Positions 3,925-45,745 of a stretch of DNA of 45,745 nucleotides are shown piece by piece (positions within the stretch are counted from its first letter, which is position 1; each line of letters begins with the position of its first letter). The translations under genes were made by a program, and so were the position numbers. Below the pieces are notes generated by a model. The model ran no database searches, was not told the origin of the DNA, and worked only from the letters and a program-made list of their open reading frames with translations. The stretch is from contig JWZX01002432.1 in assembly GCA_001275005.1 (NCBI GenBank), forward strand, positions 1-45,745, read 5' to 3'. Source of the stretch: Chrysochromulina tobinii. Its lineage: Eukaryota.

Positions 3925-4690
3925 CCGGCACCGTACCGGTAAAAAGACACCGGGGGGAGCCGGGACACACATGGGACACACGGGACACGCGGACGCACAA
4001 AGGCACACAGACCAATCTCACAACCAACCAAACCCACCAACAACAAACACCCCGCACGTCAGCGCGACGACCGAAGCCGGTAAAAAGACACCGGGGGAGC
4101 CGGGACACACGGGACACATCGGTGTTACCGGTACCGGGGTATGCCCCCAGGACGGGCGGATGGTCTCGGCACTCTGCGAGAGCTCTCGTACATTTAGCCC
4201 GTGCCTTCCTGCGTGCCGTTGGCAATGGCCGTTGGCCGGAACACGGTCGTTCGCTTCACGTACCTTACCCCCACTACATGTGCATGTGATACATGTACCG
4301 GTAGCCCCACTATTGCCCCCGCGCTGACTGATGGTGAAGTCCAACGCAGACGCGATTTAGTGGGGAATTAGGGGGAATAGTGCAGCTACATGTATTGAGG
4401 TTCGTGTGTCTGTCTCGTGTGTCCGGCTCCCCCCGGTGGAGCGGGAGGCTTAAGGAGGCGGCTGGGTCGGGTTCGCAGGGGGCGGCCTCTTCCGAGTCGG
4501 CCGCTGATTCGGTCGTCTCGCGGTCGCGCGGGCGGCCCTGCGCGCGGGTGCGTTGGTGGGCATGGGTGGGTTGGGATGGTTGTGAGGTTCGTCTGCCCTT
4601 GTGTCCCGTGTGTGTCCCGGCTCCCCCGGTGTCTTTATACCGGTCCCGTGTGTCCCGTGTGTGTCCCGGCTCCCCCGGTGTCTTTTCACA
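3925..4690. mobile_element. Candidate fold-back/MITE-like element with inward-pointing repeat-family arms
   Basis: Forward cores at ~3936 and ~4077 and reverse cores at ~4417-4440, ~4610-4645 and ~4655-4690 enclose a copy of the second repeat family (4169-4358). No transposase seen. Confidence 0.55.
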
Positions 4691-4965
4691 GGACTGAGCG
4701 GGCAGTAACAGTGCCAAAGCACCGGTTGTCGCGTCTGTCGTGTTACAAGTAACGTACACAGAACCGTCATGTAAGGTGTGTGTATCCTGAGCGGTAGTTT
4801 CAGTGCTGTAGCTTTGGTTGTCGCGTCTGTCGTGTTATTAACGTTCACAGGACGAGGCACGAGAGGCCTCGGCACGGGGATGTCTCCACTTTCCAGGGCG
4901 CTCGCCCGCCTCGACGTTGGGAGAAGTCGCCTCTCCAGGTTCTCGTCAAGGACCTCCCTCCATCC

Positions 4966-17702: not shown

Positions 17703-17854
17703 GACGGTCAGACTGTGGCTGTGTCGCGTGGCAAGACCGGGGCGGCTGTGTCCTAGAGGCGACTGAACGACGCACGCACCCTCTCGCGCGGACCCGAAAT
17801 GAAACGAACAAGATGTTTGGACAAGTTGAAAAAGTTTCGAAGTCCTATAGGACT

Positions 17855-17960
17855 TACCGGTTAAAAAGACACCGGGGGGAGCCGGGACACACGCGAGACA
17901 CACGGGCGCACACGGGCACACGGATCACAGATCACACAGACGAACCTCACAAGTACCATC
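17855..17960 (+). repeat. Dispersed repeat family, solo copy
   Basis: TACCGGTTAAAAAGACACCGGGGGGAGCCGGGACACAC...CAGACGAACCTCACAA. Confidence 0.85.
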
Positions 17961-30811: not shown

Positions 30812-31211
30812 CGACCGTCAGAAGACCATGTGCTTCGAGGACCATGTGACGCTCGCAGGCGCTCCAAGTCGGTCCTAACCGGTGCGCCGCCGCACGCACG
30901 CCATGCGAAGCACGCCATGTGAAGCACGCCATGCGACGCCATGCGACGCTCGCACGCTACGTGGGCGACGCACAGGCAAACCACCAACCCTGCCCCCTGT
31001 CCATGGCGGTGGCTTGGACTGAATCCTCTGCGAGATCCCTCCCGAGGCTCGGGCAGCCATCGCGGACGCTGCCTAATGAGGAGAAACCTCCTAATTTGGG
31101 ACGCTTGCATGCGCGAGGGCCGGCCACCGCCATCGAGCGGATGAGTCTGGGACACATATGGCACAAAACATGCGCCGCGCCGCATACGACCCTGAACTCG
31201 AGCCACTTTGG

Positions 31212-31303
31212 CCTTCCGCTGATGAAACAGTACCATTGGAATTACCGACGGAGCACTCTGCGATGATGTCATAACACTCTGGCACCAGACTTCTGAGGAA
31301 AGC
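31212..31303 (+). ncRNA. Box C/D snoRNA, snR77/SNORD65-like with a second guide (copy 1)
   Basis: Box C TGATGA 31220-31225; guide TGGAATTACCG antisense to conserved 18S CGGUAAUUCCA, then D'-like CGGA; C'-like ATGATG; guide CTGGCACCAGACTT antisense to 18S AAGUCUGGUGCCAG, then box D CTGA 31293-31296; terminal stem TTCC/GGAA. Confidence 0.88.
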
Positions 31304-31390
31304 ATCCGCAACGCCCGGGCCCACCGCCAGGCGGGTTAGTCACATAACTTGCGCCGCGCCGCATACGACCCTGAACTCGAACCACTTTGG

Positions 31391-31482
31391 CCTTCCGCTG
31401 ATGAAACAGTACCATTGGAATTACCGACGGAGCTTTCCGCGATGATGTCATAACACTCTGGCACCAGACTTCTGAGGAAAGC
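31391..31482 (+). ncRNA. Box C/D snoRNA (copy 2, tandem duplicate at 179-bp spacing)
   Basis: Identical boxes and guides (C 31399-31404, D 31472-31475); internal differences only in the D'-C' spacer. Confidence 0.88.
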
Positions 31483-31886
31483 ATCCGTAACGCCCGGGCC
31501 GCGTGCTCATTCGTGCCCATGCTTGCCAATGCTCAATCGATCCGCGCCTTTGCCGCAGGCGAGACTGTAGACTGTACAAACTCCTTGAAAGTGCTGGTCG
31601 ATGGATGTCCACGAGCGTTGCAAACGGGTGACGCAAACCGCACAGAAAGTTCTTTCGCGTTCAAAGTCCTCAGCGCCGCAGCGGCGCAAGTCCCCAGACG
31701 CACGGCAGCGCGGATTCATACAAGAACCTCCCTCGCGGGGACAGTATGTAGGTTTCGAGGAGACAGTAGATTGTTCCTTGTAGAGAGAGCGCCCTGGCAT
31801 GCCAGTTACTAATACTTAATGCGCATCGCATCATTTCTGTCGAGGGAAAGCTTTTTAGTTCGGTACAGACGTGATCAGAAGTGCGG

Positions 31887-36558: not shown

Positions 36559-39072
36559 CTACTTCTTGCCCTTGCTGCTGCCAAAGATTCGGCTCATGGG
36601 TGACGCTTGGCGCGGCTTGGGCGATGCAGGCTTCGCCTTGCGCCCAGGAGATTCGGGTCGCGGCGATGCGGAGCGCGGCGACGCTGGGCGTGCGCTACCA
36701 CTGCCGCGGCCGGGGCTCTCCTGGCGCGCGGCACGCCCCGGGGAGTCTTGACGCCCCCCTGTGTGCGCCCTTCCGGGCGAGTCGGCGCCGAAATTGATTG
36801 AATATTGCGGCTCAAAGTTCGGTGCCTTCTTTGCAGGCGAGCTAGAGAGGATCCGTGGCGGCTTGGGCGTCGAGCGCGCCTTGCCGTTCTTGACGACCTT
36901 GACCTCGCCAAGTTCGAGAGCGGACTCGCCAGCGACTGCGACTGAGAGCGTCTGGCCGGGCCGCATGTGCGGCGGGCACGGCACGTTGACGAGCTGCCCG
37001 CCGACGTTGGCCACAAACTGCGCGCCCGGCACGGCGTCCTCAGGGATCACGATGTCGATCTTAGAGGTGCCCTCGGGCGCCTCCACATGCAAGACCGCCT
37101 TGGGTTCACAACCCTCGGGCACCGGGATGGCGGCCACCACCTCGCCGAGCTGCGCCTGGAAGTGCGTGTGCATGCCTGATACCCATCCGGAGGGCACGAC
37201 CACCTCGAAGACGGGCCCTCGATGGCGTGTATCATCGGGGGTGGGTGGTCGCTTGAGTTTCTTGCCCTTGACGACCTTTCCGGGAAAGATGATCTGCTCA
37301 CCGCTCACGGCCATCTCGACCGCCTGCAAGCTGCTCTTGCTCAGCTCGAACGAGAGCTTGTCGCCCGGCAGCGCGTTCTCCGGCACCGGAATCTCGACGA
37401 CCTCGCCCGACGGCAGCGTGAGCCGGAGCACCGCGCCCGGTCCGGCGCCCGAAGGCACGGTGACCTCGAAAGTCTCCGCGTCGTCCTCCGTGAACGACGT
37501 CCGAGTCATCTCGGTCAGGCACGAGGCAGCCTGCGGCACGAACGCGGCCGCGCCCAGCTGCAGCGGCGGCGGGAACACGGGCGGCGGCGGCGGCGGCGGC
37601 AAGTCGTCGTCGTCGGAGAAGCCGTCCAAGTCGTCGCGCACGTCGTCGTACGTCGAGTCGAGCAAATCTGACGAATCTCGCGGCGTGCACGCCTCCTGCT
37701 GCATGCTCGCCTTCTTCGGCTGCGCGTCCGCGGCGCCGGCGCCCGCGCCGACGCGCAACGAGGAGCCGCCACGCGGAGTGAGTACCACGTTCTGAGCGCA
37801 CGTGGCGTCGGCAGCGGGCAGCGGCTGCAATGCAAGGCCCGCGCGGATGACGCCGGCAGTGGTGCGCGGCGTCATTCGGGCGCCCTTTTCGTCCTCATCG
37901 CCTGCAAAGGAGCCGGCGCCGCCGCCGAGCGTGCGCTGGCCGCCGCCAAGCGCCGGCACGCCGCCGCCGCCGCCCGTCGGACGCGCCGAGAGGCGCGGCG
38001 TCGCCATGACCATCGAGGCATATGGATCCTCATCGTCCTCAAGCTCCTCGTCACCGCGGAAGGGCGAGAGCGCGAGCATCGGAGGCGGCCTGGCGCCGCG
38101 CGTCGAGAGGCGCGGAGACTGCGGCTCTTCGTCCTCCTGCTGCATGCTCGCCTTCTTGGGATTTGCGCCCGCGACAGCGCCGCCCGCTTTGCTCGACATC
38201 GGCACCTGGCTCAGCCCCTGCAGTGGCAGATCGAGAGACATGGACGGGTCAGCGTGTGCGTCGCCCTCATCCTGCATACGCATCGACTTGGGCTGCGGCA
38301 CTGAGGCCTCCTGCTGCATCATCTGCTTGCCGCCCTTGCCGCCCGCCTCCTGCTGCGGCTGCTGCTTGCCCGAGGCGCCCTTGCGAGCGCCTGGGCTCGC
38401 CCCGAAACCCTTTGGCGGTGCGAGCAGCGTGGGCGACGACGGGCTGTCAGGCGGCACGACAGCCAGCGGAGTACTCACGCGAGGGCTCTCGACCCTGCGT
38501 GGGCTCAGGCTGGCCGACAGCCCTCCCTCGCTCAGCTTCGCCAGGTACTCGAGCGCCGCACGGGGCGACGCCATCGGCTGCTGCTCCTCTGCCTGAGGCA
38601 GCTTGATGGTGAGTCCGCTGAGCTGCAGCGGCGGCACGAAGGACGGCCGCGGCGTCGACTCGTTCCGCGGCGACGGGGCAAAGTTGCTATCGTCGTGCGC
38701 CTGGTGATACGCTTGCCGCGGCGACATACCGCTCGCCGCGGCCAGCCGCGCGCGGCTGGCGGCGGCCGCCGCCGCAGGCGAGTGTGCGCACGCGGCACAC
38801 TCGCTCACACTGCTGCTGCTGGCGCCATCGAAGCCGGCCGCGTGCGCGGAAGTCGGCGAAGGCGGATAGCGGCTGAACTCTTCCGCGTCGGCCGCCGACG
38901 GTGCGAACGCTCGCGGACTCTGCATCTCTCTCCTCCTCGCCGAGTCCTGCCTGCGCCTCGCAATACGCGAGGCGAGCGACTCGCCGCCCGGAGAGCTCGC
39001 ATCGCCGCCTAAGCTGAGCGAGGGGATGACGGGGGATGAATGCACGCCGATGGGCTGCTCTGTGCGGGCCAT
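36559..39072 (-). CDS. Hypothetical low-complexity protein with repeated V-x-VP-x-G-xx-PG beta modules
   Basis: 837-aa ATG ORF; many SPR/TPR motifs; FEVTVPSGAGPG, EIPVPENALPG, FEVVVPSG, IVIPEDAVPG and VPCPPHMRPG. Confidence 0.75.
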   Translation of the reverse strand: MARTEQPIGVHSSPVIPSLSLGGDASSPGGESLASRIARRRQDSARRREMQSPRAFAPSAADAEEFSRYPPSPTSAHAAGFDGASSSSVSECAACAHSPAAAAAASRARLAAASGMSPRQAYHQAHDDSNFAPSPRNESTPRPSFVPPLQLSGLTIKLPQAEEQQPMASPRAALEYLAKLSEGGLSASLSPRRVESPRVSTPLAVVPPDSPSSPTLLAPPKGFGASPGARKGASGKQQPQQEAGGKGGKQMMQQEASVPQPKSMRMQDEGDAHADPSMSLDLPLQGLSQVPMSSKAGGAVAGANPKKASMQQEDEEPQSPRLSTRGARPPPMLALSPFRGDEELEDDEDPYASMVMATPRLSARPTGGGGGVPALGGGQRTLGGGAGSFAGDEDEKGARMTPRTTAGVIRAGLALQPLPAADATCAQNVVLTPRGGSSLRVGAGAGAADAQPKKASMQQEACTPRDSSDLLDSTYDDVRDDLDGFSDDDDLPPPPPPPVFPPPLQLGAAAFVPQAASCLTEMTRTSFTEDDAETFEVTVPSGAGPGAVLRLTLPSGEVVEIPVPENALPGDKLSFELSKSSLQAVEMAVSGEQIIFPGKVVKGKKLKRPPTPDDTRHRGPVFEVVVPSGWVSGMHTHFQAQLGEVVAAIPVPEGCEPKAVLHVEAPEGTSKIDIVIPEDAVPGAQFVANVGGQLVNVPCPPHMRPGQTLSVAVAGESALELGEVKVVKNGKARSTPKPPRILSSSPAKKAPNFEPQYSINFGADSPGRAHTGGRQDSPGRAARQESPGRGSGSARPASPRSASPRPESPGRKAKPASPKPRQASPMSRIFGSSKGKK

Positions 39073-39373
39073 GGTGTCACACGGAGCTTCTCGGCAAGCC
39101 GCCTAGACGCCCGGCTTGCTGCTTCGCTCAAAGATGGGCCAATGTGAGGGAGGGACCTGTGTGGAATCGATGTCCAAAAAAGGATTACGCGCATCTCCCT
39201 GAACTATTCTCCTCTAGCGATTTCTAACGAGGTGGTTAGGAGAATGTGGGGGCGGAGCCTTTGTCGGGCCTCTACAAAAAGCGTGAAGGTGATGACGACC
39301 CGTGTGGCCGGGGCGGACTCCAACAGGGCAACGGGTCTGTCTGAGGCAAGCGGTCTCCGACAGACCCGCCTCC

Positions 39374-40675
39374 ATGCGCCGCCGAGCGGAGCCCTCTGTC
39401 GCCGAACTGCAGTTCTCCTTCCCTCTCACACATGAAGCCGTGCTCGCGATGATGGCATGCTTCAGCAACGAAGGAGGCTGCCTGCTTCCGACGCCTTTTG
39501 TGATCGAGCTGCTCACCAAGCAGGAGGAACTACTGCGTGCGCTTCCAAACATTGTGGAGTTCGAGGTTCCCCCGGGTCAGCAGATCTGCATCGTTGGCGA
39601 CATCCATGGGCAATACGAAGACCTCATGCACGCCTTCTACATGCACGGCCTTCCCTCGCTCGAGAAGCCATATCTCTTCAACGGTGACTTTGTGGACCGC
39701 GGCAATCAGGGAGTAGAGGTGACCCTCACCGTCTTCGCGTTCCAGCAGCTGTATCCCGGGGCCGTCTTCCTCAACCGGGGCAACCACGAGGAGGCCTCCT
39801 GCCACTCCGTCGACGGTTTCCGGAAGGAATGCACCTCCAAGTACGGGCTGGCCGTCTACGACCTGTACGGGCGGCTCTTCACGAGGCTTCCCCTCGCCAC
39901 AGTACTCAACGGGGCGGTGCTGGTGTTGCACGGCGGTGTCGACTCCAACTTCACCCTTGAGCAGCTGCGCGACGCCGACCGCGCGGCGTACGTCGCCATT
40001 GTCAACAGCGGCAGCGCCAAGCGAAAGCGCTTCGCCCGACCTGCAGAGGGAGCCAAGAGTAGGACACATCTCGAGCGAGCCGCACAAATCGAGGCGCAGG
40101 CAAAGGCCAACTACCCGATCAACGCGGCACTATGGAACGATCCAGGCTCCTGTGAAGGGGAGTGTGAAGGGGAGGGCTTCAACAAGTGGCGAGGCACCGG
40201 AATGGTCTTCGGCCGCGACGTCTGCAGACGCTGGTTGGAGGACAACGGCCTCCAGCTGATCATACGATCACATGAGGAGGTGGAGCATGGGTTCGAATGG
40301 CCCTTTGGCGATGGCGAGCTGCTCGTAACCGTCTTCTCCGCAAGCAACTACGCGAGGAGCACGAGGAACCAAGGGGCAATCGCTCTTCTGTCCTCCCGCT
40401 GCGCCTCGTCCAGACCCGATCTCCCCGATGCTGGGTGGCCTTCGGCGGAGGGCCTGGACTCGATACAGCCCTCGCTTCTCTGCTCCGAAAGCGATGCCCC
40501 CACGATCCCCGCGGACCAGGGTTGTGAAGCGCTGGCCTCGGAGTCGTCGGCAACCCTCGCTGGAAGTAGCCCCTTATCCCAGCGTTACTCCTTTGAATTC
40601 GGCGCGCTGAGCTTTCTCCAATATGAAGCTCACGAGCTCTCCCAAGCCACAAGCGGATCTGCTTCAAATTTATAA
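39374..40675 (+). CDS. PPP-family Ser/Thr protein phosphatase (PPEF/PP5-like)
   Basis: GDIHG, FNGDFVDRG, RGNHE, HGG, IRSHE and TVFSASNY. First in-frame ATG at 39374; an upstream exon is possible. Confidence 0.9.
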   Translation: MRRRAEPSVAELQFSFPLTHEAVLAMMACFSNEGGCLLPTPFVIELLTKQEELLRALPNIVEFEVPPGQQICIVGDIHGQYEDLMHAFYMHGLPSLEKPYLFNGDFVDRGNQGVEVTLTVFAFQQLYPGAVFLNRGNHEEASCHSVDGFRKECTSKYGLAVYDLYGRLFTRLPLATVLNGAVLVLHGGVDSNFTLEQLRDADRAAYVAIVNSGSAKRKRFARPAEGAKSRTHLERAAQIEAQAKANYPINAALWNDPGSCEGECEGEGFNKWRGTGMVFGRDVCRRWLEDNGLQLIIRSHEEVEHGFEWPFGDGELLVTVFSASNYARSTRNQGAIALLSSRCASSRPDLPDAGWPSAEGLDSIQPSLLCSESDAPTIPADQGCEALASESSATLAGSSPLSQRYSFEFGALSFLQYEAHELSQATSGSASNL

Positions 40676-40853
40676 ATTTGGAAAAATCGCGGCATTCACG
40701 AGCCGTTCAGTGTGATGACGTGCAGAAGCATCCAAAAACAGCAAGTTCAAAACGTACTCTCCTTGTACGTACATCCTAGAGTACGTACGGTCGCACAATT
40801 CCTCCGAACGCTTTGTCTGCGGCTTTCACTTTACAAGACTCCATCACGGTGGA

Positions 40854-43800
40854 ATGAGCGACGAACCCAAAGCTTCTGACACTCAAATGATCGATGAACT
40901 CGGTTTTGGCGCTGCCCTCGTAACACCATTCGAGACTCAACACCTCTCACACGTCTGGAGCCATGTCCTTGGCAACACGCCGATTCCAAGCTGGGATCAG
41001 CGCTTGAGCGAGATCCTTGGCTTCATCCGAAGAAAAGAACCGTGGGAGATCAAGCCAGAGGACGCGCGACTGCTCCTCGTGAGCAGGTTGGCAAGGGGGG
41101 GCGCTCGACAGGTGCCGAGCATGAAACATGCCAACTGGGTCCACAAGACTGAGCCGCACGTCTTCTTCGTAGAGGGCGACGGGCAAGATACGGGCGACAT
41201 CGGAGAGAGCGACTATGAAAGAGTCACTACCAGTGGCGCGCTCTCGCACACTGTCACTCAATTCCCCGACTTGATCGCAGTGAAGCGGGCCAGCTGCTCG
41301 CCTGGGAAGGATACCCCAAACCCCAAAAAGGTGGGCGAGTGGCAGCTAGCGCTTCTGGAAGGCCACCCTGATTTCGGGAGCAAAACATTCCGAGGCACTC
41401 TGGAGCTGAAAGAGGAACGGGAAGGCGGATATGGCCGTGATGGAATCAAGTGCAAACTCTTTGGCCCGAAACTCGTTCACTCGGTCCCCGACATGAACAA
41501 GAAACGCAGGAGCGAAGCTGGCTCGAGCTCAGTTGATAATAAAGTCATCTCAGGCGACTTACGCGTCGATGGCTCGGTGGACATCGGTGAGAAGCTGACC
41601 GTTGGACAGGACGGCGAAGGTGTGATCCACGGGAGGCTGCAAGGTCACCAGGCGGACCATGCCGAGTGGATGCCGCGCCATGACCCCGGCGAGGTCCTCA
41701 TGCCCGGTGACGTGGTGGCGCTCACTCGCGACGCCAACGGCACGCAGATCAAGGTCTCGAAACACGCGATGGGGTTCATAGACTCGGCGGATGTCGAGTG
41801 GGTCGTAGTGCCAACCAACCCGCAGATCCTCGGCCATCAGCCTCCACCTGGCGAGGAGCACCTGCACGTGCCCATCGTCTTCATGGGCCAAGTGCCTGTG
41901 CGTGTGGAGGGCAGCCCGAGGGCGTCGAGGTACCTCATGCCGTCTGATCGCCTTTGTGTTTGCCGCTGATTGCCTCTGATGACCTCTTGATGGTCTCCCT
42001 CATCAGGTACCTCGTCCCCTCGGGCAAGGAGGATGGCACAGCGCGCGAGCTGCGGGAGGACGACGAGGACGAGGACGTGTTCGGTCAGGTGGTCGGTCAG
42101 GTGGTCGACGCGGTCATTCGTAACGGGCGCGTCGAGGCGTGGGTGATGCGCTCCTCTCCGCTCGACCGCTGGCGCCAGATGAAGCACAGCCGCCAAATGC
42201 AGAGGGATGCCGATGAAAGGGTGGCGGCGGCGCCAGCGCCAGCAAACAAAGTGCGCCTTCCCGAGCGCTTCGAGGAGCTGCGACTGCTCTCGTCGACTGC
42301 GGACGCTAGACTGCTTTCGTCGACTGTGGACGCGGGCCTCTACTCGAAGCTCGAGTCGGGCGGCACCTTCAACATAGCCGAGAAGGTGCTGCCCCTCGCC
42401 GACGACCTCAAGCGCCTCAGCACGGCCAAGTACCTGCTCAACGTCCCGGCCAACCTGCTCGCCCTCGGCGCCGTCGTGCTCCTCGGCGGCGAGTTCGCAC
42501 TGATCGCGGCGGTGCCCGACGACAACGCGGTGCTCCTCAGTGTTCAGGTGGTCACCGGCCTGCTCGCGGGCGGCGGTGCGGTCATCCTTCTCGCCACTTC
42601 CTTCCTCGTGAGAGGCATGTCGCTCGCACCTGCACACGACAACGGCGTGGAACTCAGCACCGTCGTCGTGGAGGGTGCGCCGGTCGTGGGCGTGTGCAAT
42701 GGCGTCTATCATCCCGCGCCAGACGACCATCCAGCCGACGGCAAGCCCTTCTACTGCAACCAGCACGGCGCCGCAATCGGCTGGTGGGACGAATCGTCGC
42801 CTCCGCCCTGCGACGACCCCTGGATGACGGCGGCGGACGAGCGGGCGGCGGAGGAGCGGGCGGCGGAGGAGCGGGCGGCGGACGAGGAGACGGCAGCGAC
42901 GAAGGCGGCGACGAGGCCTCTCGATTCGCAGGCGAAGGCTAAATGGCTGAAGATATATGCGCATCTGTGGATACGAGGTACTGCGAGTCAGTGGGCGGTG
43001 ATCCCCCCGCTAATCCGTCGGTGCCCCTCTGCGCTCATCCGCGAGGTACGAAAGCGGCAGCGAATCGCCATGACTTGGCGGGGGCTGGCAAACGCGGCGC
43101 TCAATGCGGAGTTGGGGGTGTTCTCATGGCAGCCGCTTGTTGACCGTTTGTTGTCGTTCATGCCTCCCGCCCAGAGCACCGGCGAATCCTTCGCGGCCGC
43201 TCTCACATGCCGCGAACACAAAATGCTCACCCGGGTGCGCCTCGCGGCTCTCGCCGCTCGTCCGGAAGGAGCGTTTTGGAGCATTTTGGAGCTCGTGGCC
43301 GAGCTCGCCCCCCACCAGCCTGGCCGTTGTGCCAGGCTCCCCGTTGCCCAGGCTACGTTGTGCCATACGCTATCGCCATCACTTCGGGCTGAGGCCTCTC
43401 ACCACCGCCCTCGCCCCATAACAGCAGCGGCTCGGGCGGAGTGGCGGAAGTTATCATGGGAGCAGAAAATTCTCACGGAAGCCTGCGGCGGAGGCCCACG
43501 TGTTGGTCCATCGCGCGCCGTTGACGGCACTTCCCCGGCCGCGAAGGCGGCGGCGGACAAGGCGGCGGCCGACAAGGCGGCGACCGAGAAGGTGGCGGCG
43601 GAGGAGCTGCGGCGCCGTGCCACGGCGCTGGGCCTGCTGCAGGTGCTCACGACTGCCAGCATCGCCGACGACGCGACGTTGAAAAAGTCGATCACGTTTT
43701 GCGACGAGTACGGCATAACGAGCGTCTCCGACATGGTCGAGTACAACCTGGTCCAAGACTTTGTTCGCCATCTCGGCCTGAAGACGGTCCCCGGCAAGAA

Positions 43801-43996
43801 GCTGCTCAGCATGCTGCAGACACCGACATCCGGACTCGCCGCCCAGTTGAGCGACCGCCTGTTCTCCCCGAGCAGCAGCCGCAAGTCCTCCAGCGCCACG
43901 ACTGTGGAGCCTTCGGTGGAGGCAGAGGAGCCTCAGAACCTCGACGCGGTTTCCGAACCTGTGGCCGAGGCCATTTTCAAGGCGCTGTCGGCCTAG
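40854..43996 (+). CDS. Multidomain membrane protein with peptidase G2/IMC-like autocleavage domain; join(40854..41929,42007..43996), ~1021 aa
   Basis: A 77-nt GT..AG intron joins two ORFs into ADHAEWMP...PGDVVAL...VVPTNPQILG...IVFMGQVPVRVEG...RYLVPSGKEDGTA. KKRR at 41499-41510; two hydrophobic helices at ~42431-42610; SAM-like C-terminal segment. Confidence 0.75.
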
Positions 43997-44549
43997 CTGG
44001 CCCAGCAGGCCCACGCGGAGGCTGCGCGGCAGCAGTTCGAAATAGAGACCAGGGTGCAGGTGGCCTTGATGCAGAAGATAGTCGCGGACAAGAAGGAGGC
44101 AGCTGGTGCGGCGGGGGAGAGCACGGCGCCCCCCGCCTTGAGCCTCAAGAAGCCCTCTGAGCTCAAGGGCCGCGACCCCTACGCGCCGATCGCATCTCCT
44201 CGGCGGGGTCTCGAAGGGAGAGAGACGTCCCGCCGCGAGAAGGCTGGGCCTGGGATGCCGGAACAGCCTGGCGGTAGGAATGTGCAGGACCTGGACTCGC
44301 AGCCAGCAGCGGTCGAGACGAAGCATCCAGCAACGGAGCGCATTGAAGATCGCGAGGCCGACATTCTTTCTTGAGGCCTGATGAGGGTACGTACAGCTGT
44401 AGTACTGTTCTCTAACCCGCCTGACCCGCTGTGTTGTTCCTGCCCGCGACCTCTCCCCCTGGTATAACGGTCGCTCATCCGTACACTGAGGGCGGCCGGA
44501 GTAGCTTGTGTTTTCCCCCTCTGTGGGGGGGAAAGTATGTGCAGTATCC

Positions 44550-44590
44550 GTATGTGTGTCCCGGCTCCCCCCGGGGTTTTGAATCGGTGT
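44550..44590 (-). repeat. Dispersed repeat family, degenerate inverted copy
   Basis: TGTGTGTCCCGGCTCCCCCCGGGGTTTTTGAATCGGT. Confidence 0.7.
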
Positions 44591-44877
44591 GAATACATGT
44601 GAGTACAGTACGACCGTTTCGCGAGGCGAATCCGATCGTGTCCGAACACGATCACGTCGGCCTGTGAATTTCGTCAATCGTGCTTTTTAATGCACGTTCC
44701 GGCGACCGCGAAGGCAAGGACATGGACGTCGAGAGTGAGTTAGAACCTATTGTCGACCTCGAAAGCATTCCTGATCAAGACCCTCAGCCAGACGCCGAAG
44801 ATGACTATGCTTCGATGTTGGCTCACGAAAGCAGAGCTGATCCTCCCGGGGAGCTTACAAATCATCACGGTCAAGGA

Positions 44878-45745
44878 ATGAGCGACGAACCCAACGCTTT
44901 GGACCCTCAAATGATCGATGAACCCGGTGTTGGCGCTGCCCTCGTAACAACATTCCAGACCTCGGGTGGTGGCGGTGCTGGTGGCGCTGATGCTGGTGAT
45001 GCTGGTGGTGCCGGTGGTGGTGACGTGGCGGCCTCCGCTGACCTCGGCCTGCACGCCCTGGTCCGCTCCACCTCCTCGCGGCTGCCCGCGATCAACAACA
45101 ACCCGCAGCTCGGCTCGGTAGCGCAACCCCTCTCACACGTCTGGAGCGATGTCCTTGGCAACATTCCGATTAAAGATAAAAGCTGGGATCAGCGCTTGAG
45201 CGAGATCCTTGGCTTCATCCGAGGAAAAGAACCGTGGGAGATCAAACCAGAGGACGCGAAACTGCTCCTCGTGAGCAGATTGGCATGGAAGGGCGCTTTG
45301 CAGGTGCCGAGCCTGAAACATGCCAACTTGGTCCACAAGTCTGAGCCGCACGTCTTCTTCGTAGAGGGCGACGGGCAAGATATGGGCGACATCGGAGAGA
45401 GCGACTATGAAAGAGTCAAAACCAGTGGCGCGGACTCGCACGCTGTCACTCCATTCCCCGACTTGATCGCAGTGAAGCGGGCCAGCTGCTCGCCTGGGAA
45501 GGATACCCCAAACCCCAAAAAGGTGGGCGAGTGGCAGCTAGCGCTTCTGGAAGGCCACCCTGATTTCGGGAGCAAAACATTCCGAGGCGCTCTTGAGCTA
45601 AAAGAGGAACGGGAAGGCGGATATGGCCGTGATGGAATCAAGCTCAGACTGTTTGGTCCGAAACTCGTTCACTCGGTCCCCGACATGAACAAGAAACGCA
45701 AGGTCAATGCTGGCTCGAGCTCAGATGCGCCCGTGAGCGGGAGGG
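44878..45745 (+). CDS. Tandem paralog of the 40854 gene, 5' part (open to window end)
   Basis: ATG 44878 (MSDEPNALDPQMIDE...) with no stop to the window end; highly similar to 40854-41530 apart from a Gly/Ala-rich insertion; ends near KLVHSVPDMNKKRK. Confidence 0.85.
   Translation, partial: MSDEPNALDPQMIDEPGVGAALVTTFQTSGGGGAGGADAGDAGGAGGGDVAASADLGLHALVRSTSSRLPAINNNPQLGSVAQPLSHVWSDVLGNIPIKDKSWDQRLSEILGFIRGKEPWEIKPEDAKLLLVSRLAWKGALQVPSLKHANLVHKSEPHVFFVEGDGQDMGDIGESDYERVKTSGADSHAVTPFPDLIAVKRASCSPGKDTPNPKKVGEWQLALLEGHPDFGSKTFRGALELKEEREGGYGRDGIKLRLFGPKLVHSVPDMNKKRKVNAGSSSDAPVSGR

Follow-up and report, generated by a model that had tools for sequence, protein, structure and literature searches.

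A Chrysochromulina gene family that joins a predicted NAC-like fold to a gp12/peptidase-G2-like domain in a layout resembling MYRF

MYRF and MrfA are the textbook example of a eukaryotic transcription factor with a borrowed phage chaperone that cleaves itself. Three reports describe their layout as a DNA-binding domain, a short beta stalk and a phage-derived, trimerising and self-cleaving chaperone (PMC5436001, PMC3828593, PMC8326128). For phi29, it is stated that the dyad assembles across subunits upon trimerisation (PMC5436001) and that the mature protein has Ser as its last residue (PMC4690869). We have analysed a stretch of 45,745 nucleotides from the haptophyte Chrysochromulina tobinii (contig JWZX01002432.1; the whole stretch is called the window here), in which a gene near one end encodes, once spliced, a protein of 1021 amino acids. 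On the reading that we favour, and which we hold to be probable, this protein trimerises, cuts itself at a gp12-type domain and frees a fragment with a NAC-like fold, its two membrane helices being likely a recent capture. Because it joins a predicted plant-NAC-like DNA-binding domain to a self-cutting domain of phage type, the protein likely frees its own transcription factor. In the full-text literature searched, which leaves most subscription journals outside, we found no account of a eukaryotic transcription factor with a G2-type domain, nor any of the family of the window's gene. The family is real and apparently undescribed, and apparently converges on the self-cleaving logic of MYRF.

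Two plus-strand open reading frames cover the gene (40854–41969 and 41948–43996), and excision of a 77-nt intron (Table 1) leaves a single frame from 40854 to 43996 with one stop. Much of this structure had been proposed in a sequence-only reading of the window, and most of it stands. The intron is borne out by transcripts: in a first set of runs, four of four RNA runs from three studies skip it. Between these spliced contigs and the window there are 3–12 differing letters in exon 1, and the contigs have indels of a paralogue or allele type, so that splicing is established for near-identical copies, not for the exact window allele. The skip was not found in a second set of two RNA and two unlabelled runs, and run X16 contains 41586–42213 in unspliced form; homologues that lack the intron continue through the same junction with the frame unchanged. 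The order of motifs is also as proposed, with KKRR (codon at 41499), a beta stretch from 41544, Asp (41655), Glu (41664), GDVV (41706), GQVPVRV (41886) and YLVPSG (42008) all in place, and the two hydrophobic helices predicted downstream of the G2-like motifs were recovered at 42434–42490 and 42530–42586. The globular N-domain of about 210 residues exists as well, with different limits: it spans approximately residues 43–219 and is preceded by an acidic leader of 42 residues.

Table 1. Positions in the window of the features of the gene and of its tandem copy
Feature	Position	Strand	Basis
Acidic low-complexity leader, aa 1–42	40854–40979	+	Leader composition in the family
N-domain, aa 43–219, ending in KKRR (41499–41510)	40980–41510	+	Model, NAC/GCM-type fold
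Beta-repeat stalk, aa 231–267, predicted trimer stalk	41544–41654	+	Alignments; low model confidence
G2-like domain, exon-1 part; Asp 41655, Glu 41664	41655–41929	+	gp12 fold match; PF11962-bearing profile matches
Intron	41930–42006	+	77 nt, GT-AG; skipped in 4/4 RNA runs, unspliced in X16
G2-like domain, exon-2 part, and following helix	42007–42213	+	Intronless homologues, same frame
DUF1118 fragment, two predicted membrane helices	42214–42607	+	Pfam; joint 42213–42608; parent-type contig
Mosaic tail	42608–43996	+	RNA contigs and homologues; no Pfam match at E 0.05
Tandem paralogue, truncated by the window end	44879–45745	+	Second N-domain copy; continues in L001

Several observations concern the surroundings of the gene. 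A metallophosphoesterase with its own stop codon lies upstream at 39296–40675. The NCBI model P0034, in which the upstream phosphatase is fused to G2 and DUF1118 parts, was judged a likely mis-model because the phosphatase frame stops itself at 40675 and no RNA joint supports the fusion. Many contigs that are otherwise unrelated, and whose ends are loose, match the 3′ part of the intron (41966–42008), which suggests an intron-end repeat that is common in the genome. A dispersed repeat of 30–75 nt, possibly a small mobile element or a promoter motif, occurs in both orientations at 175–252, 600–686, 3930–4110, 4596–4692, 17852–17929 and 44540–44587, one copy sitting just upstream of the tandem paralogue. 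At 31162–31500 there are two direct copies of 160 nt, 96% alike and separated by 179 nt.

Judged by profiles and by a predicted model, the middle domain of the protein is gp12/peptidase-G2-like, and the earlier assignment to the peptidase G2 type is supported in that both approaches agree and that the Asp and Glu lie in the register of the gp12 cut site. For the fold, a model was made of the homologue P0053 (pLDDT 69; 52% identical to the window part), and its best match among 48,161 chains was the C-terminal fragment of phi29 gp12 (3gqh; Z 10.7, rmsd 2.7, 112 aligned). The Asp of DHAE (model residue 38) falls on residue 692 of the 3gqh chain, the first of its range, and Glu695 is the catalytic residue of gp12. 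Phage capsid decoration proteins come next in the same search (Z 9.3 and 8.4); since they score near gp12, the fold by itself is no proof of cleavage. The best viral match found for the domain, at E 3.7e-7, is to a preneck appendage protein. A profile built from nine alignment members finds 132 longer proteins, and eight of the 120 matches listed carry PF11962, the Peptidase_G2 family (best 6e-7). The link to PF11962 that had been anticipated was recovered through homologues that bear it and not in the window itself, whose G2-like part has no sequence match in Pfam, PHROGs or the PDB; one of the nine alignment members touches PF11962 (E 0.052), below the Pfam gathering cut-off.

The motif D-x-[AG]-E is found in 243/243 proteins that cover the site; as the motif is itself contained in the search profile, this invariance is in part circular. 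The residue before the Asp is Ala in all eight of the PF11962-annotated matches. In the window the site reads A-D-H-A-E and includes neither Ser nor Lys, so the Ser-Lys dyad of S74/ICA domains is absent from it. By analogy with gp12, the cut is predicted between Ala267 and Asp268 (41654/41655), directly after the putative trimer stalk, in whose place the helicase subfamily described below has a coiled coil. A viral origin of the fusion was considered and rejected, there being zero relatives in the viral contigs.

Ahead of the stalk, the predicted model of the N-domain (pLDDT 87.5) suggests a DNA-binding fold of transcription-factor type that is NAC-like. NAC was the top match of a wide fold search (Z 7.4, rmsd 3.9, 116 aligned), followed by SSR4 (5.8), GCM (4.0) and WOPR (3.6). 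A second search returned four NAC entries at Z 7.5–8.1, the best with an rmsd of 3.3 over 106 aligned residues, and the next non-NAC entry at 3.2; these NAC values are moderate, of a level that the fold tool calls common. NAC and the DNA-binding domains of GCM, WOPR and WRKY type have one sheet type in common. Foldseek gave zero matches for the model at E 1e-3. The N-domain has no sequence match in Pfam, PHROGs or the PDB, and the NAM signature is absent from the window (E up to 1) and from 20 homologues (E up to 10). An Ndt80-like DNA-binding domain is likewise found neither in Pfam nor among the fold matches listed, where NAC is best, and a likeness to CG-1/CAMTA that was suspected by eye has no Pfam match.

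Sequence features of the N-terminal region are compatible with a role in transcription. Acidic residues dominate the leader in 17/17 family members tested (D+E 0.11–0.33, K+R at most 0.07), which makes it a candidate activation region, and a basic NLS-like patch is present in 16 of 17 members under a permissive pattern. A W-x-K/T strand, which we take to be the DNA-reading (recognition) strand, is present in 10/15 divergent members and missing from the window's clade. When 1.84 billion representatives were scanned by HMMER with a profile centred on the N-domain, only 23 matched, so that at this sensitivity the domain is narrowly distributed; P0064, a fish protocadherin found among the N-domain profile matches at E 5.5e-4, was taken as chance. 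In the text that we consulted of a haptophyte transcription-factor survey, haptophytes are listed without WRKY and NAC comes up solely in the plant benchmark (PMC4827209).

The helices after the G2-like domain have a different history. They occupy residues 502–520 and 534–552 (Kyte-Doolittle 1.83 and 1.98) and belong to a block that matches Pfam DUF1118 over profile positions 2–112 (E 8.3e-7; 29.8 bits against a gathering score of 22.5). Plastid proteins with this domain go by the names RIQ1 and RIQ2. For one diatom member, a chloroplast location is tabulated (PMC10269134). A separate, parent-type transcript contig, seen in X1, X4 and X5, covers 42328–42607 with 20–22 differences (~92% alike); both of its ends are loose and, read by eye, it stops eight codons past the shared part. 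The 15 differences listed touch 14 codons, of which 10 are altered in their residue and four are silent, in line with the 28% of silent sites expected under drift. It is likely that the helices were captured recently from a plastid-protein gene and do not belong to the design of the family. The joint is not an assembly artefact, as contigs with 0–4 differences span the DUF1118 junctions. Within the DUF1118 piece, L008:11600-11800 departs from the window (42430) at AG|GT, a site where an intron of the parent gene could begin; the window version would then be derived from mRNA.

It is distinctly unlikely, in our view, that the window copy is a working membrane-tethered factor like MYRF, in which the DUF1118 hairpin would keep the precursor anchored in the ER up to the moment when it cuts itself. 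The frame is unbroken across the helices, the chimeric junction is seen in independent runs (X1, X4, X7, X15 and X16) and the P0042 group, a helix-bearing sister lineage, has nearly identical helices, all of which would suit such a factor. However, the syntenic allele L008 (99.1% identical over 39000–42216) and L007 hold the front of the DUF1118 piece and end before the helices, with no helix exon found downstream in either; the tandem copy has none; the helix piece has diverged from the parent-type contig without silent-site bias; and the hairpin is of a two-helix plastid type rather than a single anchor with a luminal domain. Helices are present in 16 of 23 exon-2-type proteins, mostly from one cluster. 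Single marginal hydrophobic windows (1.82–1.88) also occur in P0121, P0122, P0123 and P0129 and in the members of their clusters; they lie inside helicase, G2-like or Ala-rich parts, and we did not take them for anchors. The mosaic tail that follows the helices, of ~470 residues, starts with a small beta module that the tandem copy also has, and continues with Ala/Glu repeats, an F-box-like piece (~43127) and KAAADK repeats; a multi-copy block at 43536–43889 is skipped by some copies.

Comparison of copies shows that tails have been swapped between copies of the gene. The second N-domain copy, from 44879, is 93% identical to the first and continues in L001, which is 100% identical to 44702–45745 and has an N-domain and a G2-like domain. 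In L001 and L005 the segment 42214–42607 is replaced by 58 different nucleotides without helices, and L005 and P0049 run on into tails of the F5/8 type C type. Relative to L004, the G2 core has a dN/dS of 0.19 and the N-domain one of 0.41; when the comparison is with L001 and L005, where the changes are few, recent values are 0.5–0.8. One could take the window copy for a young, transcribed but functionally decaying mosaic of a shuffling multi-copy family, in which only the older paralogues with dsRBD or helicase tails work. We judge this improbable: there are indeed many N-domain-only copies with unrelated ends, alleles that differ in their tails, recent dN/dS values of 0.5–0.8 and, in the window's clade, a recognition strand without its Trp, yet a frame of 1021 residues is still open, the residues in the catalytic register are intact, dN is below dS in six of six comparisons and near-identical copies are spliced in three studies.

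The wider family gives the best view of what the C-terminal half was originally. Among 363 proteins, 152 carry both the N-domain and the G2-like domain, and those with a species name are from Chrysochromulina only (C. tobinii P0034, C. parva P0297). We defined a full-length set of 62 by a complete G2-like domain and a tail of at least 250 residues in one open reading frame, a count that leaves intron-split copies outside. Their tails are a dsRBD-like array in 40, a helicase in 18 and ankyrin-like in four, with DUF1118 in none; by lineage the split is 6/10, 3/10 and 1/10. The best PDB matches of the helicase tail are ancestral Dicer (1e-50), DCL4, DRH-1 and RIG-I. A dsRBD stands above the Pfam cut-off in P0121 and P0129. 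In the window's parent clade the dsRBD signal, present in 11 of 13 members, lies below that cut-off (best 7e-4) and the tail has zero PDB sequence matches; when aligned to a dsRBD profile with hhalign, repeats 2 and 3 match (76% and 92%, controls <1%) and repeat 1 does not. In a tree of 49 G2 domains, where bacterial and phage labels were assigned from sequence content and from which P0136 was left out because the motif pattern missed it, the window stands beside L001 and P0029/L004 (100/100). This group is nested in the dsRBD-tailed clade (99/97), separate from the helicase clade (97/96), and L004 retains the dsRBD-like tail (E 6e-75) that the window has lost from its own gene. Extra domains have been inserted in some members, namely trypsin and RanBP zinc fingers in P0297 and a beta-lactamase fold in L004, and P0135 has a weak ZZ finger.

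Four relatives (L010:8672-13007, P0117, P0121 and P0129) combine in one gene the N-domain, a coiled coil, the G2-like domain, a Dicer/RIG-I-type helicase and a dsRBD, and Pfam reports no RNase III or PAZ domain in them. The L010 gene is interrupted by a likely intron and has neighbours of eukaryote type. Other proteins reuse the module differently. L013:43-1788, which has no Pfam match, starts with Cys pairs resembling a zinc finger, followed by a coiled coil, the G2-like domain and, by eye, IQ-like repeats; it is another algal-type reuse of the G2-like module. A separate lineage is made up of P0141/P0205 and P0139/P0209/P0210, proteins in which an acidic leader and an N-domain are combined with a G2-like domain, one predicted membrane helix and a C-terminal region rich in Cys. 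Their N-domain is GCM/CG-1-like by eye and they stand apart from the window family in the G2 tree; comparisons A4–A6 aligned the G2 parts only, not the N-domain of P0141.

Taken with gp12 and MYRF as guides, these data suggest a scheme in which the G2-like domain would fold the beta stalk, or the coiled coil, into a trimer and then cut between Ala267 and Asp268 using Glu271. The released trimer of 267-residue chains, with its acidic leader, DNA-binding domain and NLS, would act in the nucleus. Ancestrally, the C-terminal half was probably an array of dsRBD-like repeats, soluble in kind, or else a helicase of Dicer/RIG-I type together with a dsRBD, and from tails of these kinds the family most likely couples dsRNA to transcription. 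In a recent expansion in Chrysochromulina this tail was probably exchanged for captured pieces (F5/8 type C with DUF4476, or the DUF1118 helices).

Gating of the cleavage by dsRNA is a more speculative step. It is possible, though less than likely, that trimerisation is all that the G2-like domain brings about, or that its cleavage is constitutive like that of MYRF, the tails being separate products or plain RNA-binding modules and the N-domain not being gated by dsRNA. The published account of MrfA has its cleavage as presumably rapid and autocatalytic (PMC3828593), the capsid decoration proteins share the fold and do not cleave, and the residue ahead of the Asp is Ala or Gly here as against the Ser given for the mature phi29 end (PMC4690869); on the other side, the PF11962-annotated matches likewise have Ala at that position (8/8), the Asp and Glu are invariant and the module is paired with dsRNA-type domains in two separate subfamilies. 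Returning to release by self-cleavage, its fullest version is an antiviral switch of haptophytes within one polypeptide, in which dsRNA bound by a dsRBD or helicase would trigger G2-mediated release of a trimeric NAC-fold factor, Chrysochromulina swapping the sensor tails, a membrane tether among them, and so re-inventing the MYRF layout. On that version, the P0141/P0139 lineage would be a second independent factor with a G2-like domain and a membrane anchor, bringing the convergent origins of the layout to three or more. We regard this version as doubtful.

Were the favoured reading to hold, the family would be a second independent invention of what MYRF and MrfA do, with another DNA-binding fold and another phage protease, and it would place a NAC-like fold in haptophytes. 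Viruses control such algae in nature, and a module paired with dsRNA-type domains is a concrete and testable candidate for the way in which these algae sense them. The locus also captures domain shuffling while it is going on, in that tails differ among tandem copies and alleles.

Set against plant NAC proteins, the N-domain resembles them in its predicted fold (Z 7.4–8.1), basic patch and acidic leader, and differs in its identity of 9–12%, the lack of a Pfam NAM match and its fusion to a putative self-cleaving module. With the DUF1118 plastid proteins the gene has the family domain in common, here an in-frame fragment inside another gene. RIG-I-like receptors and Dicer have their counterpart in P0117, P0121, P0129 and L010, in which a similar helicase follows an N-terminal effector module; this effector is a NAC-fold domain with a G2-like module, not CARDs, and the window copy is without the helicase. 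With phi29 gp12 and Peptidase_G2 the middle domain shares the fold and the position of the Asp, which is the first residue of the released fragment; unlike gp12, it is internal to a eukaryotic nuclear gene, is followed by a tail of 250–1060 residues and scores below the Pfam cut-off.

The comparison with MYRF is the closest. The sequence-only reading had proposed a MYRF-analogous logic with a different phage protease and with membrane tethering as its defining feature. The gp12/G2-type domain argues for the first part. The tether does not hold for the family: the DUF1118 block occurs in 0/62 full-length single-ORF relatives and 0/4 loci with a close tail, its helices are absent from L001, L005, L007 and L008, and the claim applies at most to a young sub-lineage. 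MYRF, MrfA and the window family share the succession of DNA-binding domain, short beta stalk and phage-type intramolecular chaperone, to which cleavage and a trimer would be added here by analogy. In MYRF the DNA-binding domain is Ndt80-like, the catalytic dyad is Ser-Lys and the ER anchor is conserved. The window family differs in that its N-domain is nearest to NAC and its chaperone is of gp12 type with D-x-A-E; its conserved tail is dsRBD-like and soluble, or a helicase, and helices are found only in the young sub-lineage. In its layout the P0141/P0139 lineage comes closer to MYRF than the window gene does. By these analogies the window family would work like MYRF in its N-terminal half, and yet it is no member of the MYRF family.
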